Shown here in pieces: positions 6,484 to 27,600 of a stretch of 32,000 nt of DNA. Each line of letters opens with the position of its first letter. Position 1 is the first letter of the stretch. The stretch is taken from contig NC_009933.1 of the NCBI RefSeq assembly GCF_000018105.1, positions 60,001 through 92,000 on the forward strand, given 5' to 3'. The stretch comes from Acaryochloris marina MBIC11017. Its GTDB lineage: Bacteria; Cyanobacteriota; Cyanobacteriia; Thermosynechococcales; Thermosynechococcaceae. Under the pieces are notes generated by a model, which was given only the letters and a program-made list of their open reading frames with translations, made no database searches and was not told the DNA's origin. The translations under genes were made by a program, and so were the position numbers.

Positions 6484-6790
6484 TCACCCCCAAACCATAC
6501 TCACCCGCTCCCGATCCAACTACACCCCGATCATCTCCTCGATCCGCTCAATGGTTTCCCCTGGCCGCAGACTTAAAACCTGCAACACGTCGAATGTGTA
6601 CTCCAATTCAAGGGTGTACTCGAAACAAAATTCAGGCGTTGCAAATGAAATTTTGATGAATGGCTTACTACTGCCTTCGACGGTGATCCATTAATTCCCT
6701 GAGCTGCTTCGGGACACCGTGAGATACTCAAGTTGACCCTTTTGCCTGATCTGCTGAACCAAGTTCTTTGTTTGTCATCAAGCTCAATGA
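6484..6790 (-). pseudogene. Decayed copy (A) of the small gene X
   Basis: Minus-strand translation is collinear with the intact copy at 17485-18123: QTKNLVQQIRQKGQLEYLTVSRSSSGN*WITVEGSSKPFIKISFATPEFCFEYTLELEYTFDVLQVLSLRPGETIERIEEMIGV*LDRERVSMVWG*. It has two in-frame stops. Upstream of it the frame is broken by further stops. Confidence 0.7.
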
Positions 6791-7120: not shown

Positions 7121-8857
7121 GTGCCTAACAAAAGAATTGATTCCTATCATACTCGTGTTTATATGAACGGAAGAGACCTCGGCTTAAAACAAGCTGATGC
7201 AGCTTACATTGCCGAAATATCTACAAGAACCGGACAACGAATTGAGGCCGGCACCCATCAACCTAATCGCGGCCGCCTTCAGGACCAACGCACCGTTCCC
7301 GACCCCTTAGCTGATGTGTGGGAAGACGAGCTAGAACCAATGCTGCGTCGAGACCCACGCCTCAAACCCATGACCCTGTATGAGTACCTGCAGGATAAGT
7401 ATCCAGGCCAGTATCCCCAAGTCCTGCGGACCCTACAACGTCGGGTGAGAACGTGGAAAGCCTTACATGGACCAAGCCCTGAAGTGATGTTTGAATTGCG
7501 TCATGAACCAGGGGTACAAGGGTTCTCCGATTTTACAGAACTCAAAGGCATCACGATTACCATTGCCGGCAAACCCTTTGAGCACCTGATTTACCATTAC
7601 CGTCTGGGATACAGCGGCTGGCGATATGCCCAGATCATCGAAGGAGGCGAAAGCTTTGTCGCCCTCTCAGAAGGATTGCAAAATGCCTTTGCAGCCTGTG
7701 GAGGTGTTCCTACACAGCATCGTACTGATAGTTTGAGTGCAGCCTATCGCAACATGGGCGGCCGCCGGTCCAAAAACCTCACTCGTCTGTACGACGAACT
7801 GTGTGACCACTATCGGCTAGAACCCACTCGTAACAACAAAGGTGTAGCCCATGAGAATGGCTCCATTGAATCTCCCCATGGTCATCTGAAGAACCGAATT
7901 AAGCAGGCGATCTATCTGCGCGGCAGTGCAGATTTTACGAGCGTTGCTGAGTATCAAGCCTTAATTGATGCACAGGTTGCCAAGTTGAATCAGCAGTGCC
8001 AAACCAAGTATGAGCAAGAGAAAGACCATCTACAACCACTGCCCAAATATCGAACCCCTGACTATGAAGTGCTCACGGCTAAAGTCAGCAAACGCAGCAC
8101 CATCGATGTTCGCTGCATTCTATACACCGTCCCTTCTCGACTGATTGGTCGTCAATTGGAACTGCATCTATACCATGACCGGATTGTCGGCTATCTGGAG
8201 CGACACCCGGTGGTGGAATTGCCGAGGAAGCGCGTCAGTGGCAAAGGCAAACGTCGCGACCGTTGCATCAACTATCGCCATGTTATTGGTTCAATGCGAT
8301 TGAAGCCTCGTGCTTTTATCTATTGCACCTGGCAATCAGACCTACTTCCCAATCCTGAATACCGCCAAATCTGGGAACAGCTCAAAGCCCAATTTGACCT
8401 GGAGCAGGCTGCCAAGATCATCGTGGAAGCCCTGTATATTGCTGCGGTTCAAGATAAAGAACAGGCCGTAGCAGTGTACTTACAGCAGCAGCTTCGCTCA
8501 TCCAGCCTTACCCTCAATCGCCTGAAAAAACAGTTTGAGCCGCCTCAGATGAAGCAGGTTCCTGAACTCAGCATTGAACAACATTCACTTGAACTTTATG
8601 ACAAACTCCTCCCCTCCTGCTCAGTCCCCGCTGAGCCCCTACCAGCACCTGAGCCTCTATTTAAAAAAGCTCAGGCTCTCCCACATGTTGACCCATTGGG
8701 AATCTATCGAATCCCAAGCCATGCAGGAAAACTGGTCTTATGCGGAATTCTTACTAGCCTTGTGCGAAACGGAGGCCCAACGAAGAGAACAAGCTCGTCT
8801 AAAACGTGCCCTCACCGAAGCCAGGCTCCCAAACGCAAAAAGTTTTACCAACTTTGA
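7121..8857 (+). CDS. istA: IS21-family transposase IstA
   Basis: 578-aa ORF (GTG start) with a DDE integrase-type core (FSDFTELKG..., HRTDSLSAAYRN, GVAHENGSIESPHGHLKN) and the typical C-terminal EQHSLELYDKLL region. The ORF then continues ~86 codons into istB in another frame. Confidence 0.85.
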   Translation: MPNKRIDSYHTRVYMNGRDLGLKQADAAYIAEISTRTGQRIEAGTHQPNRGRLQDQRTVPDPLADVWEDELEPMLRRDPRLKPMTLYEYLQDKYPGQYPQVLRTLQRRVRTWKALHGPSPEVMFELRHEPGVQGFSDFTELKGITITIAGKPFEHLIYHYRLGYSGWRYAQIIEGGESFVALSEGLQNAFAACGGVPTQHRTDSLSAAYRNMGGRRSKNLTRLYDELCDHYRLEPTRNNKGVAHENGSIESPHGHLKNRIKQAIYLRGSADFTSVAEYQALIDAQVAKLNQQCQTKYEQEKDHLQPLPKYRTPDYEVLTAKVSKRSTIDVRCILYTVPSRLIGRQLELHLYHDRIVGYLERHPVVELPRKRVSGKGKRRDRCINYRHVIGSMRLKPRAFIYCTWQSDLLPNPEYRQIWEQLKAQFDLEQAAKIIVEALYIAAVQDKEQAVAVYLQQQLRSSSLTLNRLKKQFEPPQMKQVPELSIEQHSLELYDKLLPSCSVPAEPLPAPEPLFKKAQALPHVDPLGIYRIPSHAGKLVLCGILTSLVRNGGPTKRTSSSKTCPHRSQAPKRKKFYQL

Positions 8858-9416
8858 CTTTAGCCATTGTCCCCAGCTCAATCCAGCTCCCTTGATGCAA
8901 TTAGCCGCAGATCCGGGTTGGTTGGAGCGCGCCGAGAATTGCCTTATTCTGGGGCCCTCGGGTGTTGGAAAAACACATCTGGCCACTGGGGTGTCCAAAA
9001 AGATGCTGGAATTCGGTAAGCGGGTGAAGTTCTTTGCAGCCAACGCATTGGTCCAGCAACTGCAACAGGCGAAGCTCCAACTGCAGCTGCATCCAATGCT
9101 CAAAAAACTGGACCGCTATGATCTGTTGATCTTGGATGACTTGGGCTATTGCAAAAAGTCGGAAGCGGAAACGTCCGTTCTGTTTGAATTAATTGCGCAT
9201 CGCTATGAACGAAAAAGTTTGTTGATTACAGCGAATCAACCCTTCAGCCAATGGGATGACATTTTCACTGATTCGATGATGGCGGTGGCTGCCATTGATC
9301 GCTTAATTCATCATGGCTTGATTATCGAAATTCAAGCCGATAGTTATCGGCGCAAATCAGCGACTCAGAGAACGGCTCAAACTCAGTCTCAACCTCAAAA
9401 ATCCCAGTCCAAATAA
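8598..9416 (+). CDS. istB: IS21-family helper ATPase IstB
   Basis: LILGPSGVGKTHLATG is Walker A and DLLILDDLGY is Walker B. The N-terminal region SYAEFLLALCETEAQRREQARLKRALTEARLP..KSFTNFDF is typical of IstB. ATG 8598 is preferred over the TTG at 8574 listed in the track. Confidence 0.9.
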   Translation: MTNSSPPAQSPLSPYQHLSLYLKKLRLSHMLTHWESIESQAMQENWSYAEFLLALCETEAQRREQARLKRALTEARLPNAKSFTNFDFSHCPQLNPAPLMQLAADPGWLERAENCLILGPSGVGKTHLATGVSKKMLEFGKRVKFFAANALVQQLQQAKLQLQLHPMLKKLDRYDLLILDDLGYCKKSEAETSVLFELIAHRYERKSLLITANQPFSQWDDIFTDSMMAVAAIDRLIHHGLIIEIQADSYRRKSATQRTAQTQSQPQKSQSK

Positions 9417-10672: not shown

Positions 10673-10724
10673 CTAATTTGCCTAAATCGGTTGGGAGTAA
10701 GCGAGAAAGTAATCCTTTGCATTA

Positions 10725-10925
10725 TCACCCCCAAACCCTACTCACTCGCTCCCGCTCCAACCACACCCCGATCATTTCCTCGATCCGCTCAATAGTCTCC
10801 CCTGGCCGCAGACTTAAAACCTGCAACACGTCGAACGTATTCTCTAACTCCAAAGCGCACTCGAAGCAAAACTCGGGCGTTTCAAATGGAATTCTGATGA
10901 AGGGCTTGCCAATTTTAAGAAATAG
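10725..10925 (-). pseudogene. 3' fragment (copy B) of gene X, uninterrupted and in frame with the upstream pentapeptide gene
   Basis: Translation: LKIGKPFIRIPFETPEFCFECALELENTFDVLQVLSLRPGETIERIEEMIGVWLERERVSRVWG* with no internal stop. The P1 stop (10935-10937) and this stop (10725-10727) are 210 nt apart, that is 70 codons in the same frame. Confidence 0.65.
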
Positions 10926-10934
10926 ATCCTCAGC

Positions 10935-13025
10935 TCAAGAGCCTTCAGCATCTATCCATCCCCTAACTGTCTCAATGGGTATTCCGATGGGTGCAAACAA
11001 AACTTTCAGAGTCTCTACTCCTCCCTCCTTCAAGGCATTCTGTAAACGCTGCCGAAAAGTTGGATCTATCTTTATTCTCTGCTCAACCACAGTCTGTATA
11101 TCTGTCGGATTAGTTTTCTGCAACTGACTCAGTAAATCCTGAATTTCTTTTGCCGATTCAGCCGGGGTTTGTTTTATTTCTGGAGCGTAGTTGTGTTGAG
11201 TGGTTTGTTGAATTCCCTCATTTACTCCAGCCACATTCCCAACTGGAGCATTGATGTTTTGAGTAACTTTATCTTTGTTTGCCATGGTCTGGACCATTGA
11301 AAGTAACTGGGCATTTTTTTGGCGTTCAAAAGCTAGAGATTCTTTTGCTAAATCTAATGTTGCACCTTGGAGCTTCATTTTCTCAATAAATTGTTCTTCA
11401 AGAACCTTTAGTTGTTTACCATATAACTCTTTAGCTTTAGTTTCTATCGCACTCTTGTTAGCCTCAGGTGGTGCCTCCAGTCGAACAACAAAGGCTGCGC
11501 CTTTCTTTTCAATAGCTTGAATGCCAACCTCATATTCATTGAACTTGGATCGGAGTAGCTGAAAAGACTGAAAAAAGGCTTGCCAGTCAATACCATCAAC
11601 AAAAATAAGATCAATCGTTTCAAGAGACTTCTGGACTAAAGCAACAAATTCACCTGGGCAGAAGTTTCCTTGGAAGGGGCGACGTTCTTCTTGATTTACT
11701 TTGAGATAGATGTAATCACACACCACACCTTCAAAGCCAGTCTTAGAATTAATACTCCAATCCTGAATACAAGCCCCTGTCAATATTGCATTTTGAAGTT
11801 TGCTGCCCAGGAAATTTGCTCGGTAAAGATTTGAGTTTCTAAGGTTAACACCACTGAGGTTAGCATCATTAAGGTCGGTACCACTGAGGTCTTTTCCTTC
11901 CCCACCTTTATTTACCAATTCGTGAACCAACTTCCATTTAGCGTCAATCTTTGTTTCAGCAGAAATTTTGGTATTCCTGAGGTCGGCACCACTGAGGTCG
12001 GCATCACTGAGGTTGGCATCACTGAGGTCGGCACCACTGAGGTCGGCATCACTGAGGTCGGCACCACTGAGGTCGGCACCACTGAGGTCGGTACCACTGA
12101 GATCTTTTCCTTCCCCACCTTTATTTACCAATTCGTGAACCAACTTCCATTTAGCGTCAATCTTTGTTTCAGCAGAAATTTTGGTATTCCTGAGGTCGGC
12201 ATCACTGAGGTCGGCATCACTGAGGTCGGTACCACTGAGGTTGGTATCACTGAGGTCGGTACCACTGAGGTCGGCATCACTGAGGTCGGCACCACTGAGG
12301 TTGGCATCACTGAGGTCGGTACCACTGAGGTTGGCATCACTGAGGTCGGTACCACTGAGGTTGGCATCACTGAGGTCGGTACTACTGAGGTCTTTTCCTT
12401 CCCCACCTTTATTTACCAATTCGTGAACCAACTTCCATTTAGCGTCAATCTTTGTTTCAGCAGAAATTTTGGTATTCCTGAGGTTGGTATTCCTGAGGTC
12501 GGCATCACTGAGGTCGGCATCACTGAGGTCGGCACCACTGAGGTCGGCATCACTGAGGTCGGCATCACTGAGGTTGGCACCACTGAGGTCGGTACCACTG
12601 AGGTCTTTTCCTTCCCCACCTTTATTTACCAATTCGTGAACCAACTTCCATTTAGCATCAATCTTTGTTGCAGCAGAAATTTTGGTATTCCTGAGGTCGG
12701 CACCACTGAGGTCGGCATCACTGAGGTTGGCACCATTGAGGGCGGCACCAATGAGGGCGGCACCAATGAGGGCGGCACCAATGAGGGTAGCACCCCTGAG
12801 GTCGGCATAAATGAGGGTAGCACCCCTGAGGTCGGCATAAGTGAGGTTGGCATCCCAGAGGTTGGCACCACTGAGGGTAGCACCCCCGAGGTCGGCACCA
12901 CTGAGGTTGGCACCCCCGAGGTCGGCACCCCAGAGGTATATAGACTCACCTGTATTCTTTTCTCTCCATTGATTCCAAGCCTCAGCACCCTGCTTCAATA
13001 AATCAACTTGTTCTTGATTAGCCAT
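10935..13025 (-). CDS. Pentapeptide-repeat protein P1 with four-fold higher-order repeats and a conserved post-repeat domain
   Basis: N-cap MANQEQVDLLKQGAEAWNQWREKN (ATG 13025; GTG 13028 also possible). Long runs of A(D/N)LS(D/G) units are interrupted four times by RNTKISAETKIDAKWKLVHELVNKGGEGKDL. The shared domain follows: GACIQDWSIN...VVCDYIYL...ERRP...PGEFVALVQKSLETIDLIFVDGIDWQAFFQSFQLLRSKF...IQAIEKKGAAFVVRLE. After it come a coiled coil and a tail ending APIGIPIETVRGWIDAEGS. Confidence 0.9.
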   Translation of the reverse strand: MANQEQVDLLKQGAEAWNQWREKNTGESIYLWGADLGGANLSGADLGGATLSGANLWDANLTYADLRGATLIYADLRGATLIGAALIGAALIGAALNGANLSDADLSGADLRNTKISAATKIDAKWKLVHELVNKGGEGKDLSGTDLSGANLSDADLSDADLSGADLSDADLSDADLRNTNLRNTKISAETKIDAKWKLVHELVNKGGEGKDLSSTDLSDANLSGTDLSDANLSGTDLSDANLSGADLSDADLSGTDLSDTNLSGTDLSDADLSDADLRNTKISAETKIDAKWKLVHELVNKGGEGKDLSGTDLSGADLSGADLSDADLSGADLSDANLSDADLSGADLRNTKISAETKIDAKWKLVHELVNKGGEGKDLSGTDLNDANLSGVNLRNSNLYRANFLGSKLQNAILTGACIQDWSINSKTGFEGVVCDYIYLKVNQEERRPFQGNFCPGEFVALVQKSLETIDLIFVDGIDWQAFFQSFQLLRSKFNEYEVGIQAIEKKGAAFVVRLEAPPEANKSAIETKAKELYGKQLKVLEEQFIEKMKLQGATLDLAKESLAFERQKNAQLLSMVQTMANKDKVTQNINAPVGNVAGVNEGIQQTTQHNYAPEIKQTPAESAKEIQDLLSQLQKTNPTDIQTVVEQRIKIDPTFRQRLQNALKEGGVETLKVLFAPIGIPIETVRGWIDAEGS
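11891..12697. repeat. Intragenic higher-order repeat: four 93-nt linker modules separating blocks of 15-nt pentapeptide units
   Basis: The 93-nt module cttttccttccccacctttatttaccaattcgtgaaccaacttccatttagcgtcaatctttgtttcagcagaaattttggtattcctgaggt is identical at 11891-11983, 12104-12196 and 12392-12484. At 12605-12697 it carries 2 substitutions. The intervening blocks are exactly 120, 195 and 120 nt (8, 13 and 8 units of 15 nt). Confidence 0.95.
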
Positions 13026-13138
13026 CACACTCTCAAGACATTCCTGGATCAGTCAATACCACTCAGCTCATTTACCAAACTGATGAATGATACCCACATA
13101 TTCTGAATTGTACTAGCCCCAAAAAGATAGAATCCTGG

Positions 13139-13645
13139 TTAGAAAGTCAATGATTTATGAGCTGATCCATCATCTCCACCCAAAATCACCCCAGATTTCC
13201 CCTCGATTCCATCATCACCCCTCTCTTTCTGCCCGATTTCCTGATCATTTCCACAACCAAACTCATCGTTTTCAGTTCGCTTTTCCATTTCTGTAATTAG
13301 ATCACTGTCTTTCTTACAGATTTCACAACTTGGTCTATTCTTCTCCAATCGTTGATTCCATTTCGCCTGAAACGCCTTCAGCATCTGGTCTTTGTACGCT
13401 TCATTACCTGAATAGCGAATCACATATAGACTCACGGATTCCTCACTGCCCACCTTGACCAATTCATGGGCCACTCGCTTAACCAACTTGTTGACAATGG
13501 CAACGGCACTCTGACCTTCACAAACCACATTACGGAAGTGTCGATAAATCTGATAGCGATATTCCAATGCCTTCACCTTGATGTCTTCCAACCGCTGATC
13601 GGCCTCCGACATCACCATGATTTCCATCCGCATCCGGGCCTCCAC
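13139..13645 (-). CDS. Free-standing paralog of the Rep C-terminal domain (intact ORF; may be a gene remnant)
   Basis: The 168-aa ORF MEARMRMEIMVMSEADQRLEDIKVKALEYRYQIYRHFRNV...VGSEESVSLYVIRYSGNEAYKDQMLKAFQAKW aligns residue for residue with the last ~165 aa of the 24679-28434 Rep. Nucleotides are identical at 13611-13642 and 25121-25152. Homology stops at about 13653 / 25163. Confidence 0.6.
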   Translation of the reverse strand: MEARMRMEIMVMSEADQRLEDIKVKALEYRYQIYRHFRNVVCEGQSAVAIVNKLVKRVAHELVKVGSEESVSLYVIRYSGNEAYKDQMLKAFQAKWNQRLEKNRPSCEICKKDSDLITEMEKRTENDEFGCGNDQEIGQKERGDDGIEGKSGVILGGDDGSAHKSLTF

Positions 13646-13986
13646 CTGCTCATTCAGAAACCTAACATTGCTCTGTCATTGGAAAGCTAACGTAAAGTAT
13701 CACCACTGAACTGCTACTTCAAAATCATCAATAAGCCTAAAAATCACCTACTGCGCTGCAAGCAGACAGGGTACGGAATACTATTTCCTTCAAAACCGTA
13801 GATTTGGATTGGAATCCCATTTATTCACTTGAAACGGCGGGAAATCTCCCCCCCCCACTAGATTAAAAAATAGTGCCTAACTTTTGTACTTAGCCATTAT
13901 GTTGGCAATACTCTTCCCCGCAATTTCGCAACCTTCAGATAAACAAAGCTATCATCATGAAGAAATCAGGATAATCAATATCAACA

Positions 13987-16900
13987 ATGAAATCTATCAA
14001 GGGATTTTGGCTTTTTCTGGACACTGCTATAAAAGATATCCCTTGGGGAGATGTAGCCCTGCACGGTATTGAAGCCATGAAGGCGTTGCCGGATGCTTCA
14101 AAAGCTTGGCAAGACAATGCTGATAAGATTCAACAGCTTGCCCCTTTTGTGCAAAAGGCAGAACCACTGATCAAAGCCCTTGATATTCCAGTGACAAAGT
14201 TGGTTATTTCTGGGCTGCCATTTATATCTGCTGGCATTAACTTGCTGAAAATTGGGATTGAACTGGCAAAAGTGGAGTCAACTTTCGAAAGTTCAGTCAC
14301 AATTGTCGCCCAACTCGCCTATCTCCAGAGTTTAGAAATAGTGTTGGTGAAACAGGATGAGACGATCAAAGCGAAACTAGCGCAGCTATCTCTCAAGGAT
14401 GTTGTCGAGAAACAGCTTTCCAAATTTTATAGAACGGAACTGACCCTCACTGAGGCAAAGACAGCCACTACCCAGTTTCGAGAGTCCATATTAGTCGAGA
14501 AGTTTGGAGAAGCACTGACAGAGCAGTTGCAACAGGTCGGGCTGGACAACAGCCAAACTCAGCGATTAACAGATCAGGTTATTTGGGGGAGTCATCGGTA
14601 TTTCCATCTGGCGATTGTAGAAGCTGGGGAGAGTGTAGAACCTCTAGCAGAGTTTTACCGTACTGGTGGACAGCAAGAGCTAGAACGCTACACAGCTATC
14701 GACGAGTATTTAGAAACGCAGATTAAACCAACACCGCTGGAGCAAGTCTTTGATGAGAGTGCCCCCAGAGTAAGCTTTCAAGATATCTACGTACAACTGG
14801 AGGTGCAGCCTTTAACTCAAGAAGGTGAGGTAAAACGTGGTGCTAGCCCCATCTGTAGTCATGAATGGACCAAGAAAATCCTAGAACAGTCAGCCAACCA
14901 GACCCGCAAAGTGATGTTTATGGAAGGTGAAGCAGGTCGGGGTAAATCCGTATTTTGTCGCATGATTGCTGATTGGGTGTATTCGGAATTTGGAGATGCT
15001 TTTATTCCCTTGCGGATTAGGCTGCGAGACTTACGGGCACTAGCTAACAACTTAACTGAAACTCTAGAAGACTGCCCAGATTTAGAGCAGGCAAAATTCG
15101 TGCGTGGGGAATCAAACTGGTTAGCGGATAAAAACACGCGATTTTTCCTTATTTTGGATGGCTTTGACGAAATACTGCTTGAAGGGCGTACCAGCGGAGG
15201 TTTAAAAGAGTTTTTGCAGCAGGTGACAGATTTTCAGCGACGTAGCCATCATCAGTTGTTAGTAACAGGACGACCCTTAGCACTGCAAGGAATCGATAGA
15301 CTTATCACCCAAAACAAGGACTTGGAACGGGTGCGTCTGAAACCTATGAGTGATGAGTTGAGAGAACTCTGGCTGATAAAATGGCAAGCCATATTTGGAA
15401 CGAATCAGGTCAATCAATTCCGGCAGTTTCTGACGGCCTGTCCTCAAGACATCACTGATACTCTGGCCCGTGAGCCGCTACTGCTCTATTTGCTGGCTCG
15501 GCTGAATCGCGAGGGGCATCTGACCCAAGAGATGTTTGCAGATACACAAAAGGGCTTCAATAGCGAAACTCAGGCCAAGCTGCAGATTTATCGGGAATCG
15601 GTGAATTGGGTACTAAAGAAACAGCGGCAGGATGAGAACTTACGGCTTTCAGGGTTGGACACCTTGGATGATTTACGGGAGGTATTACAGGAAGCAGCTT
15701 TGTGTGTGGTGCAGTCGGGGAATGAAACGGCTCGACTGGAAATGGTGAAACAGCGGTTTAAAGGCAGCAGCAACCCTGTAGCTGACTTGCTGAAGCAAGC
15801 CCAAGAAACCACTGGGCAATCAGAAAATAAGGCACTAAACAACTTACTGACAACCTTTTATCTAAAGCCGGGCGAAAAAGATAAACGAGGTTCAGTGGAA
15901 TTTGCCCACAAGAGCTTTGGGGAATATTTATTCGCAGAGCGATTACTGATCGCCTTTGAAACGTGGACAGAGTTAGATAAACGAAAACGGTTCCGGCTAG
16001 ATGAACGATCACTGAATGAGCAAATTTACGATGTATTTGGCCATGGCGGCCTGACTCAAGAAATTGTCGCCTACGTGATGGTGCTACTTGAGGAGGGTAA
16101 CATTGACCGTTTACAGCTGTTCACACGACTCAGTCATTTCTATGACCGCTGGTGCCAAAATGAGTTTTTAGATGCTCTTCCACATGAGAATATTCCGCAG
16201 AAGAAAATGATACAACTTCTGGATCAGGATATCACTACCGGATTAAAGCAAGTGGATGTATTTACGGGCTTAAATGCGATGATTTTTCTGTTTAGGCTAC
16301 ATGCATCTACCCAGCCCAAGGACTATCCCTATCTTGGAGACGATACATCTCAACACGAAATCTATTTTTACCCCTGTGGTAAACCTGAGCCTGAAGGCTT
16401 GCAAGCAGACCGTCTTCTCAAAATCATTCGTTACGCAGATTCACTCGTACCAGGGATTTTTAACGAAACCGTTGGACCTTACCTAAGCAGCGCCAACCTC
16501 AGCAGCGCCAACCTCAGCTTCGCCGACCTCAGCAGCGCCAACCTCAGCTTCGCCGACCTCAGCTTCGCCGACCTTACCAACACCGACCTCCTCAGCGCCA
16601 ACCTCAACGGCGCCGACCTCCGCAACGCCAATCTCAACAACGCTGACCTTCGCAGCGCCGACCTCAACAGCGCCAACCTCAACGGCGCCGACCTCCGCGA
16701 TGCCAATCTCAACAGCGCTAACCTCAGCAGCGCCAACCTCAGCTTCGCCGACCTCAGCTTTGCCAACCTCAGCTTTGCCAACCTCAGCTTCGCCGACCTC
16801 AGCAGCTCCAACCTCAGCCGAGCCCTGGTTTCTGACTTAACACAGATCGATTATGAGTGGCTATCAGGTTCTAATGATGAATATCTTATTGTTCTTAGAA

Positions 16901-17475
16901 CTCATCAAAACTTTAATATAAGAATTTTCGATTCAGATATAAACTCTAATGATCTTTCCCAACTTCAAACTGCATTAGATGAATTTACTAAAATCTCTGG
17001 GTATGAAGAAGTAACTGTAACACGAGAAGAATTAGGTTCCTTCTTCAAGGATATTCGATATAAAATCGCCCGATTGTTTTATGATGATGTGCAAAGAGAA
17101 GCAATAGAAACAGGACAAGAGCTTTATCGCACAGGTAAAGCGAATATCTTAACTCGATTGGAGTGGAAAGGAGTTGAATCTTCCAAACAACTGGCTGAAG
17201 CAACAGCTGCATTATTGGAAAATGTTGATAAATTCGACAATGTTGTTTTACAAGCTGGGAAAATTATCGTAGTAAAAATTACTGATGAAAATGGGAAATC
17301 AACCCTTTGTTCAAGAACCGTTTCTTCAGAGATTAAATTCCTACTAGAACGAACCCCTCAACTGATAGATAATCCCCAAGCTTTATACGATTTGCTGACT
17401 AAGAACCCAGAACAACTACAACCAAGCATTGAGAATCGGACGACTTTACCAGCTCCCTCCGAACCCCTCAAGTAA
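13987..17475 (+). CDS. NACHT-family STAND NTPase with an N-terminal helical domain, a pentapeptide-repeat array and an extra C-terminal domain
   Basis: Walker [13 protein letters not shown] (GEAGRGKS at nt 14926-14949). Walker [12 protein letters not shown] (about 15143-15172). LLVTGRP (sensor-1-like) and [12 protein letters not shown], all as in NACHT modules. The ~300-aa N-terminal helical region has a hydrophobic stretch, [23 protein letters not shown]. There are 22 pentapeptide units at 16486-16815, then about 215 aa of AT-rich unique sequence. Confidence 0.85.
16486..16815 (+). repeat. 22 in-register 15-nt units encoding the NACHT pentapeptide array
   Basis: agcagcgccaacctc and agcttcgccgacctc type units run from 16486 to 16815 (330 nt) with no indel. 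Several units are identical, for example 16486-16500, 16501-16515 and 16531-16545. The segment is markedly more GC-rich than the flanking coding sequence. Confidence 0.95.
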
Positions 17476-17484
17476 CTCCCGTGA

Positions 17485-18123
17485 TCACCCCCAGGACATG
17501 GCCACTCGCTCCCGATCCAACCACACCCCGATCATCTCCTCGATCCGCTCCATAGTTTCCCCTGGCCGCAGCTTGATTACCTGCAACACATCGAACGTGT
17601 CCTCCAACTCCAAGGCGCACTCATAGCAAAACTCGGGCGTTTCAAACGGAATTGTGATGAATGGCTTACCAGTAATTTCCACGGTGATCCAGAATTTCCC
17701 TGAATTGCTTATGGAAACGGTCAGATATTCAAGCTGACCCTTCTGCTTGGTCTGCTGAACCAGATTCTTTTGTCTGCGCTCAAGTGCGTGAAACTTAGAC
17801 TCAAATGCTCTGGAGACTCTGGGGGGTCTGACTCTTCCTGGTGTTTCCCGAGCTGTATATCCTCGCTGTGTTCTCCGCACAAAATCGGGTTCTCGGTGAA
17901 TGTGGATAGGGGCTGATTCACGCTTGCGCTCATCTGTACCAACATCTGGAGATGGCTTGCGTCTTACTGGCTGATCATCTTTCCTGGCAATCGTTGGGAA
18001 CGCAGTCTTGTCTGAATATGCAGGGTTTGATTCGATGTTTATTGGGGGTTTCCCAGTCGATGAGATTGTTGGCTTGGGCTTCAGTGAGACAAGTTTGGGG
18101 TTCATACAACTATCCTCTGCCAA
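17485..18123 (-). CDS. Gene X, the only intact copy: low-complexity N-terminus plus a conserved ~95-aa C-terminal domain; function unknown
   Basis: 212-aa ORF (TTG 18123; ATG alternative at 18105). The C-terminal part is FHALERRQKNLVQQTKQKGQLEYLTVSISNSGKFWITVEITGKPFITIPFETPEFCYECALELEDTFDVLQVIKLRPGETMERIEEMIGVWLDRERVAMSWG. That part recurs in decayed form at five other sites. The gene is convergent with the NACHT gene (stops 10 nt apart). Confidence 0.7.
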   Translation of the reverse strand: MAEDSCMNPKLVSLKPKPTISSTGKPPINIESNPAYSDKTAFPTIARKDDQPVRRKPSPDVGTDERKRESAPIHIHREPDFVRRTQRGYTARETPGRVRPPRVSRAFESKFHALERRQKNLVQQTKQKGQLEYLTVSISNSGKFWITVEITGKPFITIPFETPEFCYECALELEDTFDVLQVIKLRPGETMERIEEMIGVWLDRERVAMSWG

Positions 18124-18234
18124 GATAAAATCAGTGTAGCTTCTGGGGATATGCTCTGGTGGATTTCAGGGGAAAGCTTAATTTGGGGGTAGGTGATTTA
18201 CAGTGGGGAAACTAGAGGTAAAGATTATGCTGCG

Positions 18235-19758
18235 ATGACTAACCAAGTGCTAGTTGAATTACTGAAACGCGGTATTGGAGTTTGGAATTCGTGGAGAGAA
18301 GAAAACTTATATGAAAACCTAGACTTTCGAAGAGTTCAACTCAGTGGTTCATATCTCAGTGAAGTTGACTTCAGTCATGCCAATTTTGAAATTGCGTACC
18401 TCAGTAGTGCAAAGCTCAGTTGCGCAAACCTTGAAGGCATCAACCTTAATCGTGCCTACCTTGGTGGTGCCGACCTCTACAGTGCCAACCTTAGAGGAGC
18501 TAATCTCATTCGAGCAAACTTCAATGACGCCCATCTTAAAGAAGCCGACCTGACTAATGCTAATCTCTCTGGTGCCCATCTTAGGGGTGCCAATCTCTTG
18601 AACGCAAACCTAAGCGGTGCCTTACTCAGTCGTGCCAACCTTGAAAACGCTGACCTAAGCTACGCCAACCTCGAAAACGCTGACCTAAGCTACGCCAACC
18701 TCGAAAACGCTGACCTAAGCCACGCCAACCTTAAGAACGCTGACCTAAGCAGTACCCACTTAAAAAGAGTAATTGCCCTGGATACAAGTTTTCTAAAATC
18801 AACATTAACTGGAATCTGCATACAAGACTGGAATATCAACATTAACACGAACTTTGATGATGTTATTTGCGAATACTTTTTTCGTTCATATAATCCTGAC
18901 TTAACCCAACCAAGTAACCGCCATCCACTCAGCAGAAACTTCGATCCCGGTGAATTTGCTATCTTGATTAAAATGTCCTTAGAGACCATAGACTTAATTT
19001 TTGTAGATGGAATTGATTGGCAAGCATTTCTCCAGTCATTTCAAGACTTACGTTCTCAATTTAGTGAACAAGAAATCGCTATACAGGCTATCGAGAAGAA
19101 GGGTACAGCATTTGTCGTTCGCCTGGAGACACGACCTGAAGCTGACAAGAATGCTATTGAAGCTAAAGCAAAGGAGTTATACAGTGGAAAGCTTTTGAGA
19201 ATGGAGCAAAAGTACAAATCTGATTTATTAGCAAAAGAGAGTGAAATAGCTATCTATAAAAAACAAAGCGCAGTTTTACTTGAAATTGTTAAGTTACAGG
19301 CAACAAGACCTATAGCAGTCGAGGCTACAGCCGTGGCAGAGAAAGCAACTAACCAAACTAAAATTAAAGACAGTACTATCGGTGCCATGCACAGCGGAAG
19401 CGGCAACATCACCAACTTTTCTCAGGCTATTGGCAGTAATCTCCATGAAATCACTAAAATAATCAAGAAATTAAAAAAATCGGCAAAAAATATACCTGAA
19501 GAATATCAAGAGGATCTTTCAGAAGATTTTGACGATTTGGTAGATGCTATCAATAACTCTGAAAAGCGAACTGAGAAAAGATTACGAAAACGAATCATGG
19601 CTTTATGGGCTATCGTTTGTGCCATCGCTGTAGGAGTCGCTGGAGCGACTGACTTTAGCAACAATCTTGTCGATTTAGCTCAAAAGTTAAATGTGCCCTT
19701 AACTGTCGAAGTAATAAAACAAAATCCACATGTTCTTCAGGAACCAAATCAACCTTAA
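18235..19758 (+). CDS. Pentapeptide-repeat protein P2 with the conserved post-repeat domain and a C-terminal hydrophobic (TM-like) segment
   Basis: ATG 18235 gives MTNQVLVELLKRGIGVWNSWREEN, which aligns with the paralog N-caps (the track start 18193 is GTG). The shared domain is ICIQDWNIN...VICEYFF...PGEFAILIKMSLETIDLIFVDGIDWQAFLQSFQDLRSQF...IQAIEKKGTAFVVRLE. The tail contains RIMALWAIVCAIAVGVAGATDF. Confidence 0.9.
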   Translation: MTNQVLVELLKRGIGVWNSWREENLYENLDFRRVQLSGSYLSEVDFSHANFEIAYLSSAKLSCANLEGINLNRAYLGGADLYSANLRGANLIRANFNDAHLKEADLTNANLSGAHLRGANLLNANLSGALLSRANLENADLSYANLENADLSYANLENADLSHANLKNADLSSTHLKRVIALDTSFLKSTLTGICIQDWNININTNFDDVICEYFFRSYNPDLTQPSNRHPLSRNFDPGEFAILIKMSLETIDLIFVDGIDWQAFLQSFQDLRSQFSEQEIAIQAIEKKGTAFVVRLETRPEADKNAIEAKAKELYSGKLLRMEQKYKSDLLAKESEIAIYKKQSAVLLEIVKLQATRPIAVEATAVAEKATNQTKIKDSTIGAMHSGSGNITNFSQAIGSNLHEITKIIKKLKKSAKNIPEEYQEDLSEDFDDLVDAINNSEKRTEKRLRKRIMALWAIVCAIAVGVAGATDFSNNLVDLAQKLNVPLTVEVIKQNPHVLQEPNQP

Positions 19759-19837: not shown

Positions 19838-21112
19838 TCAAGCATTACCAGTCAACCAAGCTTTGATTGTCGCTTTGATTACTTTGAGATATCTGTTCTC
19901 CAATACAAATTCCTCTAGGGCCTTTTCTCCACCAGCTTGCATGGCTGAAACAACCCTCTGTTTAAATTCGGGTTTTGTAGCTATATTGACGTACTGAATC
20001 TGATCAGTTTCGCTAGCTGCGGGATTGCTTTGTTCAAGTTGTTGTAAGTATTGCTGTATTTCAGTAGCAACTTCTACTAGCACTTGCTGTTCAGGTGAAG
20101 CATAGTTGTTGACGTTTCCACTACCAGAATGAAGGTTTTCAATCTTTTCAGCGTTTATAGTGGTTTGACTTATAACCTGCTCATTATTCATTTCACCTTC
20201 ATTATGAGCCGCTACATTGCCAACTTGCGCATTGAAGTTTTGAGTGGTTTCCATCGGTTTACCCGCAAGAGTTTTGATAACATCAGACATTTCTCTATAC
20301 ACTCTCAATTCTCCATGAGCTTCACTTAGCTGGAGCTTTGTTTTGTAAAGTTCTTTTTGAACTGACTCTATTGCACCTTTGTTTGCCTCATATGAAGTTT
20401 CCAGACGAACAATAAAAGCATTACCTTTCTTTTCGATGGCTTGTATACCAATTTCCTGACCAACAAACTGGGAGCGGAGTTGTTGAAAAGAATAGAAAAA
20501 GGCTTGCCAGTCAATTCCATCAATAAATATGAGATCTATAGTTTCAAGAGACTTCTGGACTAGAGCAACAAATTCGCCTGGACTGAAATTTCCATTAAGC
20601 GGGCGACGTTCTTGCTGATTTTCTCTAAGATAGATGTAATCACAGACAACATTATCAAAACTTGTATCACCGTTAATTTGCCAGTCTTGAATACAAGCCC
20701 CTGTTAGGTTTGCATACTTGAGATTGCTACTAAGGAAATTGGTTCCGATGAGATTGGTCCTTTTAAGCTTAACTCTGCTGAGATTAGCATGGCCGAGATT
20801 GGCATAACTGAGATTAGCCCCCATAAGAATCGCAGAACTGAGATTGGCATTAACTAGATTTGCACCCCATAGATTAGAAGATGTGAGTTGGGCACAGGTG
20901 AGATCTGCGTTGCTAAAGTTTGCCCCTTTTAGATTAGTTGCACTGAGATTTGTACTAGTGAGTTTGGTGCCACTGAGGTTGACACTCTTTAGATCGGCAC
21001 CACTAAGGTTAGCACCACCTAAGTCAAGCTCCACAGTAGCATTCATTTGCCTCCAAGAATTCCAAACTTTCACATCCCCGATTAATAAATTAAGTAACCC
21101 TTGATCAATCAT
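19838..21112 (-). CDS. Pentapeptide-repeat protein P3 with the conserved post-repeat domain and a distinct tail
   Basis: N-cap MIDQGLLNLLIGDVKVWNSWRQMN, then pentapeptide units. The shared domain is GACIQDWQIN...VVCDYIYL..ERRP..PGEFVALVQKSLETIDLIFIDGIDWQAFFYSFQQLRSQF..IQAIEKKGNAFIVRLE. The tail ends ...RYLKVIKATIKAWLTGNA. Confidence 0.9.
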   Translation of the reverse strand: MIDQGLLNLLIGDVKVWNSWRQMNATVELDLGGANLSGADLKSVNLSGTKLTSTNLSATNLKGANFSNADLTCAQLTSSNLWGANLVNANLSSAILMGANLSYANLGHANLSRVKLKRTNLIGTNFLSSNLKYANLTGACIQDWQINGDTSFDNVVCDYIYLRENQQERRPLNGNFSPGEFVALVQKSLETIDLIFIDGIDWQAFFYSFQQLRSQFVGQEIGIQAIEKKGNAFIVRLETSYEANKGAIESVQKELYKTKLQLSEAHGELRVYREMSDVIKTLAGKPMETTQNFNAQVGNVAAHNEGEMNNEQVISQTTINAEKIENLHSGSGNVNNYASPEQQVLVEVATEIQQYLQQLEQSNPAASETDQIQYVNIATKPEFKQRVVSAMQAGGEKALEEFVLENRYLKVIKATIKAWLTGNA

Positions 21113-21787: not shown

Positions 21788-22228
21788 TCACCCCCTACAC
21801 TTTGCCACCCGCTCCCGATCCAGGTATTTTCCCACCATCGCCTCAATCCGTTCGATAGTCTCCGGTGGCCGCACCTCGATAACCTGCAAAATCTCAAATG
21901 TGTCCTCTTAGTCCAAAGCGCACTCAAAACAATTCTTAGGGGTTTCAAACGGAATTCTGACGAAGGGGTTACCGCTGCCTTCCACGCCTATCCAAGATTG
22001 CCCAGAAATGCTTAGGGAAACCGTTAGAACCTCAAGCTAACCCTCTAGATTGGTTTGTTGAATGAAGTTCTTTTGCCTGCGTTTAAGGGCATGGAGCCTG
22101 AACGCAAAAGCTCTATAGACTCTGAGGAATGAGATTCTTTCTGATGTGTGCTGAATTAATTGCCCTAGCTTTGTTTGTGTTCTCCAAGTATCCGCGAATA
22201 GTTTCTTTTGTTTAAGCTTATATCTCAC
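21788..22228 (-). pseudogene. Copy D of gene X: full-length and collinear, but with two in-frame nonsense codons
   Basis: The track ORF 22037-22228 (...LHALKRRQKNFIQQTNLEG*) continues in the same frame as LEVLTVSLSISGQSWIGVEGSGNPFVRIPFETPKNCFECALD*EDTFEILQVIEVRPPETIERIEAMVGKYLDRERVAKCRG*. The first stop (TAG, 22037-22039) replaces the Gln of the intact copy. Confidence 0.7.
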
Positions 22229-22959: not shown

Positions 22960-24513
22960 TTAAGCATCTATCCATCCTCTCACCATCTCAATAGGTATTC
23001 CTATCGGCGCAAATAAAACTTTCAGCGTCTCCATTCCTCCTTCCTTCAAAGCGTTCCGTAAACGCTGACGGAAAGTTAGATCTGACTTAATTTTCTGCTC
23101 AACCACAGCCTGAATATCTGTGGGGTTTTCCTCCTGCAACTGAGCCAGTAAATCCTGAATTTCTTTTGCCGATTCAGCCGGGGTTTGTTTTATTTCTGAC
23201 GCATAGTTGTGTTGAGCAGCTTGTTGAATCCCTTCGTTTACTCCAGCTACATTCCCAACTTGAGCATTGAAATTTTGGGTAACTTTATCTCTGTTTGCCA
23301 TAGTCTTGACTATTGAAAGTAACTGAGTGTTTTTTTTGCGTTCAAAAGCTAGAGATTCTTTTACTAAATCTAACGTTAAATCTTGGAGATCCATTTTCTC
23401 TATATATTGCTCTTCAAGAACCTTAAGGTGCTCACCATATAATTCTTTAGCTTTTGTTTCAATTGCACTTTTGTCAGCATCTGGTGATGTTTCCAAGCGA
23501 ATAACAAAGGCTAAGCTTTTCTTTTCGATAGCCTGGATATAAATTTCCTGGTCATTAAACTGGGAGCGGAGTTTCTGGAAAGACTGAGAAAATGCTTCCC
23601 AGTCAAAATTGTCTAAAAAGATCAGATCAATTGTATCCAAGGATTTTTGTATTAGTGCGGCAAACTCACCTGAAACAAATGCCTTATCTGGATCAATAGG
23701 ACGCCTTTCAGTTGGAACTATTTCATTAGTTGCATCATTAAAAATTGACTTTAAAAAAATAAAGTCACATACAACCTCTTCAAAATTAGTCCTATTATTG
23801 ATATTCCAATCTTGAATGCACCCACCGCTTAGGATTGCACGTTGAAAATTTGCACCCAAAGCAACTGTTCTAATCATTTTAGAATTTTTGAGTTCAGCCA
23901 TACTCAAATCTGCATCAATGAAATTCGCATTTAAGAGGACCGCCTCATTGAGATTAGCAGTGCTAAGATTGGCCTTATAAAAATTTGCCTGGGTGAGATT
24001 AGAATTACTGAGGTTTGCACCTATAAGGCTAGCTTTACCAAGATCTGCATTCAGAAGATCTGTATTTTGCAGGTTTGCGTTCTTGAGGTTAGCACCTCGA
24101 AGATCGGCATCTCCGAGATCTAAATTACTGAGGTTTGCCTCTTCAAGATTACCGCCAGATCCAATTAACCACAATTTTTCTACTTGTTTAGGATTAAAGC
24201 CCCTATCCCATGTTGTAAGTTCTGAGTAAAAGGCTTCACTGAGATTTGCTTCTTCAAGTTTAGCGCCACCGAGATTCGCACCACGAAGGTCAGCTCGACA
24301 AAGAATACTTCTATTGAGATTGGCTACGATAAGACTAGCTTTTCTAAGATCGGTGCCGGAAAGATTGGCATCTTCAAGGTTCGCTCGAACAAGGTCAGCC
24401 CCCTTGAGATTCGCACCACTAAGGTCTATTGGTTCATTAGGATTTTCCCATCTCCACTTATTCCAAAGTGAAGTTCCCTGCCTTATTAAATCAACCTGAT
24501 CCTGATTAGCCAT
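22960..24513 (-). CDS. Pentapeptide-repeat protein P4, the duplicate partner of P1
   Basis: N-cap MANQDQVDLIRQGTSLWNKWRWEN, then pentapeptide units. The shared domain is GGCIQDWNIN..VVCDFIFL..ERRP..SGEFAALIQKSLDTIDLIFLDNFDWEAFSQSFQKLRSQF..IQAIEKKSLAFVIRLE. The tail is nearly identical to P1, including an identical 52-nt stretch at 23147-23198 and 11131-11182. Confidence 0.9.
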   Translation of the reverse strand: MANQDQVDLIRQGTSLWNKWRWENPNEPIDLSGANLKGADLVRANLEDANLSGTDLRKASLIVANLNRSILCRADLRGANLGGAKLEEANLSEAFYSELTTWDRGFNPKQVEKLWLIGSGGNLEEANLSNLDLGDADLRGANLKNANLQNTDLLNADLGKASLIGANLSNSNLTQANFYKANLSTANLNEAVLLNANFIDADLSMAELKNSKMIRTVALGANFQRAILSGGCIQDWNINNRTNFEEVVCDFIFLKSIFNDATNEIVPTERRPIDPDKAFVSGEFAALIQKSLDTIDLIFLDNFDWEAFSQSFQKLRSQFNDQEIYIQAIEKKSLAFVIRLETSPDADKSAIETKAKELYGEHLKVLEEQYIEKMDLQDLTLDLVKESLAFERKKNTQLLSIVKTMANRDKVTQNFNAQVGNVAGVNEGIQQAAQHNYASEIKQTPAESAKEIQDLLAQLQEENPTDIQAVVEQKIKSDLTFRQRLRNALKEGGMETLKVLFAPIGIPIEMVRGWIDA

Positions 24514-24678: not shown

Positions 24679-27600
24679 TCAATTAACACCCAAAATCACC
24701 TCAGATCCCCCCTCAATTCCATCATTTCCCACCTTCAATTGCCCGATTTCCTGATCATTTCCACCATCAAACTCATCAATATCAGATCGCTTTTCAGTTT
24801 CTGTAATTAGATCACTGTCTTTATTACAAAGTTCACAAACTGGTCTATTTTTCTCTAATCTCTGATCCCATTTCGCCTGAAACGCTTTCAGCATCTGGTC
24901 TTTGTACACTTCATTGCCCGAATATCGAATCACATAGAGACTCACGGATTCCTCACTGCCCACCTTCACCAACTCATGGGCGACTCGCTTGATCAGCTTA
25001 TTGACGATAGCTACGGCACTTTGCCCATCACTGATGACATTCCGAAAATGGCGGTAAATCTGATATCGATATTCCAACGCCTTCACTTTGATGTCTTCTA
25101 ATCGCTGGTCCCCCTCCGTCATCACCATGATTTCCATCCGCATCCGGGCCTCAACCTGCTCATAGCGGGCCTGAGTAAACGCCTGAGACTGCTGCTCAAT
25201 GGCTTCCACTAAACCTTGCTTTTGGTACTTAAGAGCCTGCTTTTGCTGCTCCAACTGCTCCAGCTCCCCCTTCAGCTTTGCCTTCCTGGGATGGGCCTTT
25301 CTGCCCAAAGCCGTCAACTTCGCTTGGATGGCCTTCTGCTCCTGAATGACTTCCCTGATCTGCCCAGCCAGTCCCTTGGCTTCCAATCTCAAAGACTGTC
25401 GTTGTCTTTGCACCTGGCGACCCTTTTCCAACGCTTTGTCATACGCCTCATAATCAGCGCTGGTGACGTTGTAGGTATCCACTAAATCAAATACCCCCAA
25501 GTCACGAAGTAACTGTACCTGGATGCGATTATTGGTTAACCGATGAGTGAGAACGAACTGACTATTGAGCTGTTTCATAAAATTCCTCCGGTCTAATTCC
25601 TCAGCAACTTCAGGGTGATACGACATCCAATGCAACTTCGTGGCACTCTTTAAGCGTCCTCGATGCTCAACACAGACTTGATGAATAAACTCATCCGTTA
25701 GGTCCACACCGGGTAACTCATCTTGTAATAAGACTTTCTTGGCATCCAACGTATCTTTATAGGTGGCAGAAGAACTCCCCATCACTCGGATGGCCTGCTC
25801 CACCGTGAACCGCTCCCCGTCAGCCGTCCCCAGCATTACCGCCGTTTCCACCTCCATCTGCTTCCGCACTTTACTGAAGGACTCGACGATATCGGCATTG
25901 CGTTCACTCAGCTCCTCCATCTCAATCGGATGCCCATGATCTGCCAGCAACAAGGTCAGGGACTCTCTTAGAGCTAACAGTGAGGCAATTGAGCGGGTCT
26001 GATATCGAGCAAAACTGACGTTGTGACAGTTGTTGGGGTTCTGCTGGTATGCCTTTAGTGCTGCCAACTGCTGAGCTGTTTCCGGTGACTGGTCATGGAT
26101 GAGCTGCTGTTCTAAATCAATGGACGCAGCCACATCTTGTCCATACTTGGACTGCAGCATGATGACCTGTTCCACAGACTTAATCGAAGGAATATCTGGG
26201 ATATGCGCCTTCCTGGTTACATAGATTTCACGAGTGACCTTTGCTCGATATCTCCAGAGCTGCTGATAGACACTGCGGGCATGATTGGATGAGGCGTAGC
26301 AAAACACTCGACTGAAATAGGGAATCAATCTCGGTTCATCAATGCTGACCCCACTCTCAGCGGTGGGACTGAGGAACAATGCCGTGGGTTGATACTCTTT
26401 GACAAACTCAGTGGGATTGGCCTGGAATATCTTATTCTCAGTGCGCTCCGATGTCTTGCGGTCATGGCGCAGAATACCTTTGGCAAACTCCGGGTTCATG
26501 TCTGCAATCATCCGCTCCAGCTTCTCAAGGAATTCCTGAGAAGTGGCAACAACAATAAACCGCTCATCGCAGGCCACGGCATTGAGGATTCTCTCTAGAA
26601 ACTGAGAGGTCTGACCAGAAAACACCTTCGTGGGAAAGTTATCATCAGGCTTGTACTCATTGACGACAATCTTGGTGTTGTACTTCCCGCCTGTAATGCC
26701 CTTGATATAGTCAATGGGAATTTGAGACAGGGAATCTTCTAAGAGAATGATATTGCCCCGAGTTTCTAAGACCCGGTTTGCGATCGCATGAAAATGTTCC
26801 AAGATCTGATTCTGCCGATCCCCCAGAGTCTGACCACTGAGAACATGGAACAGAGCAGCATCGGCTTCATCCAAGATGATGCAGCTATCGGGTTCAATAT
26901 CATCGAGTTCAATCTTGAGAAGACTATCAAAACAGAGCAAGATAGACCGCTCAGAGCGAAAGCCCATGCTGATATTGCCCTGGTATTCCTTATTGAGACG
27001 GAATAAGTGAATGAGCTTATAGAGGGTGTTCCCGGCATCATCCTTCTCAGTGAATCGGTCTTCGGTATTAAACAGCAGGTTATTCCGGTAACCGGGCATA
27101 ATCACCTGGCCCTTGACCTGGCTCACCAGGGACTTCAGCATCTCCGTCTTGCCCGTGCCACACATGGAAGCGATGGCGACGACAGACCCCGGATCAATGG
27201 TGCCTAGATCTGAGAGTTCAATGTATCGCTTATTGATAACCGTCGTGGCTTGATCCGATAGGCCATTGAGCTTCAGAAAGAGCTGACCCAGTTCATATTC
27301 CAGACCCAGACTATTGAAGAACCAAGTGGGCTTGAACACAATCTGAGCCAATTCCACTGGGGTGAGTTCATCGATATCGCAGGAATTTTCCTTGTAGGTC
27401 TGTCCCCACCAGGCCACCTCGACGATATAGCCCCATTCTTCCAGCAAGCGAATGACTCGCTGATACTGACGGAAAACATTGAGGTTCCGTACTGCCCCCG
27501 CATCAGGATAGAGGGTGATGATCGGGGATTGCTCAGCATCTTTCGATAAGACGGTCAGAGTTTCTCTCAAAGTGTCAGGAGATGAGGCCCAGAGTCCCCC

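Follow-up and report, generated by a model that had tools for sequence, protein, structure and literature searches.

A plasmid-encoded NNH3-NACHT-pentapeptide repeat protein of Acaryochloris marina with an uncharacterised C-terminal domain in place of its usual end

Bacterial NACHT (bNACHT) proteins of a 'hybrid' type, and effectors that follow the repeats, have been described (Kibby et al., 10.1101/2022.07.19.500537, Supplementary Discussion). The post-repeat effectors were proposed to be placed next to the N-terminal output domain by a toroid of the repeats (10.1101/2022.07.19.500537). Here we analyse a gene of this type in a stretch of 32,000 nucleotides from a plasmid of Acaryochloris marina MBIC11017 (NC_009933.1, positions 60,001 to 92,000 of the forward strand). 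This whole stretch is called the window, and coordinates are counted from its first letter. Pfam matches, a profile of the C-terminal tail and an AlphaFold2 (AF2) model place the encoded protein in the 'hybrid' bNACHT class. It differs from the described members in that its C-terminal domain has no consistent family-wide match in four profile libraries, and the literature covered holds no phage-defence test of a cyanobacterial member of the NNH3 family. Post-repeat tails in this family and the 'hybrid' class itself were known already. What is new is an undescribed C-terminal domain, acquired, on the reading argued below, through the repeat array.

Domain order, homology breakpoints and composition

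The open reading frame (ORF) of 1162 aa runs without interruption. Its product is a 100% match to the NCBI Acaryochloris marina protein P0002, which is annotated only as 'pentapeptide repeat-containing protein'. From the N- to the C-terminus an NNH3 domain, a NACHT domain, a pentapeptide array and a tail of 219 aa were found (Table 1). NNH3 scored 172 bits against PF22735 (cut-off 27, E = 2e-50, model positions 1-210 of 213), NACHT 35.9 bits against PF05729 (curated cut-off 26.7, aa 309-466) and the repeats, tandem A(D/N)LXX units in register, 90.3 bits against PF00805 (cut-off 20.2, ~aa 830-945). Walker A (GEAGRGKS, 14926-14949, aa 314-321; pattern GxxxxGK[ST]) and Walker B (15142-15171, aa 386-395; pattern hhhhDGxDE) are intact, and both motifs are near-invariant across 62 relatives. 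The region that follows NACHT gave no separate Pfam model match. The cap that closes the repeats resembles the ..TKIDAKW motif of a neighbouring pentapeptide repeat protein (PRP) gene. The order of N-terminal output domain, nucleoside triphosphatase (NTPase) and C-terminal repeat sensor is that of the NACHT clade of signal transduction ATPases with numerous domains (STAND). By its domains and motifs, the gene encodes a member of a widespread cyanobacterial NNH3-NACHT-pentapeptide family of STAND NTPases that resemble nucleotide-binding leucine-rich repeat receptors (NLRs).

Table 1. Features of the NNH3-NACHT-PRP locus and of its immediate flanks
Feature	Coordinates	Strand	Evidence or remark
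Whole ORF (NNH3, NACHT, pentapeptide array, tail)	13987..17475	+	ORF call, Pfam, P0002 identity
NNH3 (NACHT N-terminal helical domain 3, PF22735), aa 48-258	14128..14760	+	Pfam, AF2 model
Conserved hydrophobic segment, aa 72-96	14200..14274	+	Kyte-Doolittle, family alignment
NACHT NTPase domain, aa 309-466	14911..15384	+	Pfam
Post-NACHT region, aa 467-830, strongly conserved in family	15385..16476	+	
Pentapeptide-repeat array	16481..16818	+	Tandem Repeats Finder, 22.5 units x 15 nt, no indels
Repeat end cap and non-conserved, low-confidence linker	16816..16911	+	alignment, AF2 model
Uncharacterised C-terminal domain, conserved core, ~aa 976-1148	16912..17430	+	profile, AF2 model, alignment
C-terminal extension after tail domain, poorly conserved	17431..17472	+	
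Duplicated 3'-end fragment of CyRepA1 replication gene, 168-aa ORF	13177..13653	-	85.5% identical to 24687-25163
Convergent gene of multi-copy Acaryochloris plasmid family; right edge of tail segment	17485..18123	-	9 nt from NACHT stop

The NNH3-NACHT-PRP family comprises 792 relatives, nearly all of them cyanobacterial. Beyond the repeats, the relatives have ends of three kinds, which are ~72 aa long, ~30 aa long (..W.G..GL.TA.N.P..LKQQLGL) or formed by a tetratricopeptide repeat (TPR) module of ~175 aa. The ~72-aa end (..PPLICN..DPNRDWDRL..ERYP..FETLE) is that of the closest relatives and was seen in P0004-P0049. It is lacking in the present protein, which alone among the relatives compared carries the 219-aa tail. 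An earlier reading of the DNA, made from the sequence alone and here called the original prediction, had seen the ORF continue for about 215 aa past the repeats, as is indeed the case. The tail that it placed at 16816 is present, but the quoted YEWLSGS begins at 16852. Its assumption that members of the family end with the repeats does not hold, since nearly every relative runs on for ~30, 72 or 175 aa.

Plasmid orthologs from S15 and Moss Beach share 83% DNA identity with the gene over 13940-16824, and then the homology ends (megablast, blastn). It begins 47 nt upstream of the start codon. The gene of P0122, a standalone PRP with the same tail domain, aligns continuously over 16481-17380 at 70% nucleotide identity, covering array, linker and tail. 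No remnant of the canonical ~72-aa tail was found downstream of the gene. It is because of these homology breakpoints, and not because of composition, that we regard the tail as swapped in. In an otherwise ordinary cyanobacterial NLR-like protein, the normal short end appears to have been replaced by an alpha/beta domain of ~175 aa.

The array itself resembles both putative parents. Its mean best 45-nt identity is 0.848 to the array of the S15 NACHT ortholog and likewise 0.848 to that of P0122, with longest exact words of 26 nt and 34 nt, respectively. Five control arrays (four from the window and that of P0001) reached 0.60-0.72 with words of 13 nt or less. The swap would have arisen by recombination within the pentapeptide array or at its end, where a frozen codon set would make the NACHT and the standalone PRP-tail families ~85% identical in DNA, with shared exact words as long as 34 nt. 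The simplest reading of these alignments is that two unrelated genes recombined through codon-homogenised arrays.

The sliding GC content along the gene is not flat. It is 0.43-0.50 in the N-domain and NACHT, 0.60-0.63 in the repeat block and 0.35-0.37 in the tail; the three regimes that had been proposed, with the repeat block as the most GC-rich part and an AT-rich tail, are thus real. GC at the third codon position (GC3) is 0.44 for aa 1-300, 0.46 for aa 301-830, 0.90 in the array and 0.265 in the tail (~0.24 in the domain core). Compared with the gene background of 0.453, array and tail deviate with p = 7e-24 and p = 1e-8, respectively (binomial tests). At the second codon position GC is 0.34 everywhere but in the array (0.44), and the contrast is almost entirely synonymous, at position 3. 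Among the 300-nt windows of the 32 kb, those of the array rank within the top six for GC, and just 0.5% reach 0.60 or more. The low GC of the tail is not unique, as 9% of the 300-nt windows lie at or below 0.36. Its GC3 lies at the low edge of the values in the window, where other plasmid genes have 0.28-0.33.

The array is written in a near-single codon set, GCC-AAC-CTC-AGC-AGC, in which GCC serves for 18 of 20 Ala, AAC for 18 of 20 Asn, CTC for 21 of 24 Leu and AGC for 21 of 22 Ser. Its period of 15 nt is kept in register, as had been predicted, with 0% indels. In the S15 ortholog, GC3 is 0.485 in the core, 0.989 in the array and 0.364 in the tail, the latter being canonical, unlike the present one. 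Because this array is even more extreme, the high GC of the array is an inherited property of the NACHT lineage and not a foreign one. It is likely due to amplification and homogenisation of one unit. In standalone P0122, the array has a GC3 of 0.76 (locally up to 0.92) and the tail one of 0.27; the tail of standalone P0001 has 0.266. Since P0122 already has the same juxtaposition, the contrast between array and tail predates the fusion and moves with the modules, and three GC regimes do not imply three acquisitions. We infer that the regimes are properties of modules and no direct traces of the fusion event, which composition alone cannot show. Likewise, a recent join is not proven by a repeat array of extreme GC3 or by an accessory domain of low GC3, both being traits of the module concerned. 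Domain shuffling, as originally proposed, therefore stands for the tail, a separately evolving module joined to the NACHT-PRP core according to the breakpoints, but not for the array, which is not foreign, nor for the regimes as acquisitions.

Repeat arrays of this kind gave rise to further observations. Four relatives (P0003, P0007, P0091 and P0098) end in low-complexity tails of the PTSAAPTS or QRQPLQRH type, which correspond to the array read in the other two frames. Such off-frame tails indicate frameshifts inside the arrays of these relatives, either real or from sequencing. Long antisense or off-frame ORFs through arrays of the window (for example 11922-13001, plus strand, and 16479-16811, minus strand) are repeat artefacts.

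The tail domain and its relatives

The tail domain belongs to a family of its own. When 1.84 billion representatives were searched exhaustively with HMMER, 269 clusters matched at E <= 0.001, and 42 of them also passed E <= 1e-10 (best E 8e-67). Word-indexed homolog searches with the tail or the tail profile returned 1 and 5 proteins only, which made the exhaustive search necessary. As the original prediction had expected, the tail is no frameshift artefact. In all 108 full-length matches (108/108) the domain is the very last part of the protein, with 0-360 residues of other sequence ahead of it. Outside the present gene it forms the constant end of small proteins whose N-terminal modules vary. 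Of the 61 members scanned, 15 pair it with a capped pentapeptide array. Most partners belong to no recognised family, and single members carry a complete FtsZ, a ThiS/Urm1-like beta-grasp, a GAF or an RRM domain. In P0144 (506 aa, JGI metagenome), the tail domain follows a complete FtsZ (Tubulin and FtsZ_C) and replaces its usual C-terminal linker and peptide; this fusion may hint at tethering or bundling by the tail domain. P0140, P0141 and P0255 were discarded as members, being SprB/Ig-type repeat proteins that match one beta-hairpin repeatedly.

Over 27 diverse members only a G, a K and a P are invariant, and a G, an S, an E and a T are near-invariant. The copy in the window retains G47, S48, E94, G121, K127, T141 and P160. 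Conserved motifs are GSFF (G-S-[FW]-[FWI] in the family), G-x5-K (GKIIVVK) and NPxxLxxLL. In the family as a whole a terminal P motif is conserved. The 27-member alignment shows no conserved constellation of His, Asp, Cys or other residues of a catalytic type. The AF2 model of the tail has a predicted local distance difference test (pLDDT) score of 78, with 99 residues at 90 or above. The predicted fold starts with a beta-alpha-beta-beta unit, which bears a partial ferredoxin/S6-like resemblance only, and goes on with a long helix, a three-strand meander and terminal helices. A search of this fold against PDB and BFVD returned nothing at E <= 0.001, and a PDB sequence search with the tail gave no match. 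None of Pfam, NCBIfam, PHROGs and PADLOC gave a match that was consistent across the family. The prediction that the tail would match no housekeeping domain was confirmed in these libraries.

Two assignments of the tail were considered and rejected. The isolated tail scored 24.4 bits with HrcA_C (PF01628; cut-off 22.2), but in the full protein the score fell to 19.1, which is below the cut-off. Only 1 of 61 family members matches HrcA_C, the family profile retrieved no HrcA chain from the PDB, and there was no Foldseek match. A shared origin with the C-terminal domain of the four PRP genes next to the NACHT gene was rejected as well, as BLASTP found nothing beyond the repeats and hhalign gave a probability of 0.3%. 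Close relatives of the tail were found neither in plasmids nor in GTDB representative genomes nor in IMG/VR.

Nine distinct genomic contexts of tail-domain genes were examined, with the near-duplicate IMG/VR loci L013 and L014 counted once. Both of these came from the search with the Bacteroidota-type subfamily. L014 is a near-identical match to L013 (same identity, same E-value), and gene content was read from L013 alone, where the Bacteroidota-type relative lies between a Schlafen-like and a portal gene. In two further phage contexts the domain gene adjoins tail-fibre and lysin genes (L004, P0193) or a tape-measure gene (L012, P0124). Three genes lie in defence islands: that of P0222 (L002) with Dnd and BREX genes, that of P0148 (L010) with a convergent NACHT-SNaCT5 gene 98 nt away, followed by an AAA_15/AAA_21 gene, and that of P0165 (L015) in the order RES, SIR2, tail-domain gene, AAA_21/DUF4435 and NACHT. 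The gene of P0272 (L005) lies in an island with an integrase gene, and that of P0151 (L011) in an unremarkable context. The genes of P0001 (L001) and P0122 (L008) are followed by a convergent flavin adenine dinucleotide (FAD) oxidoreductase gene. Because members occur in three phage contexts and in three defence islands, the tail family appears to belong to the gene pool of phage-host conflict. A NACHT gene lies within ~2 kb in 2 of the 9 distinct contexts, which is suggestive and too few for statistics. In these two, L010 5001-7977 (a Hymenobacter genome) and L015 1386-10629 (a metagenomic contig), the tail-domain gene is standalone, within ~2 kb of NACHT, and adjoins AAA_21-type ATPase genes; in L015 it lies 25 nt downstream of a SIR2 gene of 1308 aa. 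The arrangement of tail-domain, NACHT and AAA_21 genes may be a conserved module of defence islands.

Possible working and alternative explanations

The N-domain is the Pfam domain NNH3, which is named but functionally uncharacterised. It was modelled as all-alpha, with aa 100-300 confident and aa 1-100 at low confidence, which agrees with the helical N-terminal ~300 aa of the original prediction. The hydrophobic stretch that this prediction had pointed out is real. It is the segment at aa 72-96, and nowhere else in the protein do 19 residues reach a higher hydropathy (Kyte-Doolittle mean 1.63; 1.6-2.1 in the family). It is conserved, with P68 and P78 invariant in the family, and is modelled at pLDDT <50. 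The following helix (aa 103-121) has conserved polar residues. A fold search of the N-domain against the PDB returned nothing at E <= 0.001. By its hydropathy the segment would be borderline for membrane insertion, and a membrane-active output of the N-domain is possible.

Taken as a whole, the best explanation is an NNH3-NACHT-PRP protein that had its end swapped via the array and acts as a 'hybrid' NLR with an interaction-type tail; we give it a probability of about 0.6. By homology to STAND/NLR proteins and bNACHT proteins, the pentapeptide beta-helix would sense and, as long as no ligand is bound, would keep the NTPase inactive. After binding, an exchange of nucleotide would drive switching and oligomerisation of NACHT, and oligomerisation would bring the NNH3 domains together as N-terminal output. 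The tail would mediate a protein-protein contact, by self-association or by tethering a partner, and would alter what the sensor end attaches to. A protein-protein interaction module is the most likely nature of the tail, judging from its strictly C-terminal position, its promiscuous partners and the lack of catalytic-type conservation. Adaptors of the effector-associated-domain type (Kaur et al.) are reportedly marked by one domain that occurs both on the NTPase and on a separate effector protein, encoded in a single genome or close by.

Several points weigh against this explanation. The fusion is found in a single assembly, as one cluster member on one contig. P0122, at only 70% identity, would not be the true donor. 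A crossover point inside the array was not resolvable, the array being equally similar to both parent types throughout. All arguments for the interaction role are negative ones, namely the missing catalytic motif and the many partners. There is also no second tail-domain gene in the 32-kb window or in 72,556 plasmids, including those of other Acaryochloris strains, that could supply a partner for self-association.

The confinement of the fusion to one contig would also be expected if it were an assembly chimera, in which two genes of one strain, a NACHT-PRP gene and a standalone PRP-tail gene, were misjoined via near-identical arrays and no fusion protein existed. The arrays of the two families are ~85% identical, with exact words as long as 34 nt in common, there are signs of rearrangement on either flank (on the left the RepA fragment, on the right a multi-copy gene 9 nt past the stop), and the frameshifted arrays of P0003, P0007, P0091 and P0098 show that such arrays are error-prone. 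Yet the frame is held across 22.5 units with zero indels, neither an N-cap nor a second array of a standalone gene is present, the contig of 120 kb runs on to both sides with typical plasmid genes, and the search of sequenced Acaryochloris plasmids turned up no standalone PRP-tail gene that could be the second parent. A misassembly has a slim chance. Three separately acquired pieces, marked by the three GC regimes, with an N-domain that acts as a membrane-inserting hairpin effector, had been the original proposal. The GC regimes are real, the aa 72-96 segment is conserved at 1.6-2.1 on the Kyte-Doolittle scale with an invariant proline in its middle, and the first 100 residues are left unpacked by AF2, which would suit a releasable element. 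N-domain, NACHT and array, however, co-occur in hundreds of relatives and form one block of 83% DNA identity with the ortholog, and the GC of the array comes from the frozen codon set. The N-domain as a shuffled-in piece falls with this, NNH3 (E = 2e-50) being a standard part of the family. Only one hydrophobic segment is present, and it is borderline; in the second helix (aa 103-121) polar residues are conserved, and no fold similarity to pore-forming bundles was found. We consider this version doubtful.

Regarding the tail, the domain could be a toxic or enzymatic C-terminal effector placed beside the N-terminal output by the repeat toroid. Post-repeat C-terminal effectors are documented for bacterial NACHT proteins (10.1101/2022.07.19.500537), standalone tail-domain genes lie in defence islands by SIR2, RES, AAA_21/DUF4435 and NACHT genes, and a constant domain with variable partners would also suit a shared effector. 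The conserved residues (invariant G, K and P; near-invariant G, S, E and T) nevertheless form no catalytic-type constellation, the fold matches no enzyme or toxin, and the FtsZ, RRM and GAF fusions look more like a generic interaction module. This makes an effector rather improbable. A further idea is that the tail is an integrated bait, the NLR having captured a copy of a self-associating domain found on small accessory proteins of phages and mobile elements, so that incoming proteins with the same domain would co-assemble with it and trigger the receptor. We regard a bait as improbable. If it were true, the protein would be a bacterial counterpart of the integrated decoys of plant NLRs, and it would be a 'Rosetta stone' fusion for the neighbouring tail-domain and NACHT genes of L010 and L015.

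For the favoured explanation, an end swapped via the array, the consequences depend on the fusion being real. Its base-level breakpoints would then reveal a way in which NLR-like receptors of bacteria can acquire other ends. Frozen-codon pentapeptide arrays would be alike enough between unrelated genes to act as recombination adapters. The ~175-aa tail domain would deserve a name, as a candidate for a new part in systems of phage-host conflict.

Plasmid surroundings and comparison with known systems

The locus looks rearranged on both sides of the NACHT gene. To the left lies the CyRepA1 fragment (Table 1), which is a rearrangement scar and no independent gene; the plasmid's own CyRepA1 gene is at 24679-28479. 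To the right, the minus-strand hypothetical ORF 17485-18123 corresponds to a sequence of ~710 bp that is present in four direct-orientation copies in the window, at 17477-18193 and, partially, at 6484-6769, 10724-10911 and 21788-22147. At 75-79% identity it occurs on at least 17 Acaryochloris plasmid records. The gene of this repeat is WP_235112866.1 on pMB06 and often lies beside SepF or double-stranded RNA-binding genes. All copies have the same boundary, at the 3' end of the minus-strand hypothetical gene.

Four paralogous standalone PRP genes surround the NACHT gene, at 10935-13028 (-), 18193-19758 (+), 19838-21112 (-) and 22960-24513 (-). They share an N-cap (..WNxWRxxN..) and a post-repeat domain, CIQDW..ERRP..PGEF..ETIDLIFVDGIDWQAF..IQAIEKKG.AFVVRLE, which corresponds to no Pfam family. 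One of them, the PRP gene of 697 aa, has higher-order repeats at 11849-12937, in which a spacer (..TKIDAKWKLVHELVNKGGEGKDLS..) recurs between the pentapeptide blocks. This spacer is also present in the metagenomic PRP-tail protein P0122, and because it is common to both, array segments appear to be mobile between PRP genes. Further to the left are an IS21-family element at 7121-9416, encoding IstA with a Mu-transposase C-terminal domain and IstB, and two ParA-like genes (2212-2853 and 4704-6092). Together they fit a plasmid whose backbone is a mosaic.

The nearest known relative by the core is the A. marina S15 plasmid ortholog WP_212666669.1 (L006 8001-11288). It and P0004 share with the present protein the NNH3-NACHT-PRP order and the extreme GC3 of the array. 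The S15 protein differs in its canonical 72-aa tail (..PSLICG..DSNRDWDEL..DRFP..) and in an array of 189 aa, compared to 113 aa here, and its flanking genes are entirely unlike those of the window. By the other half, the nearest relatives are the standalone proteins P0122 and P0001, from metagenomic contigs that resemble Acaryochloris plasmids. They have the same type of array, the same tail domain (56-59% aa identity) and the same contrast in GC3 between array and tail. Unlike the present protein, they have no NTPase, start with a LLEILRRGxxxWNxWR cap and are 347-553 aa long, and the convergent FAD oxidoreductase gene follows.

Plant NLRs with an integrated domain (NLR-ID) carry an extra, non-canonical domain. 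The present protein resembles them, by analogy only, in having its extra domain at the sensor end and in that relatives of this domain are free-standing, here including phage-encoded ones. It differs from NLR-IDs in that there is no evidence here of the tail as a bait. In plant resistance genes, unequal crossing-over in arrays of leucine-rich repeats (LRRs) yields new receptor variants. Both cases have in common that the sensor repeat arrays of NLRs serve as substrates of recombination. In contrast to the LRR case, the exchange proposed here would have taken place between unrelated genes that share only the array, and would have replaced the whole domain downstream of it.

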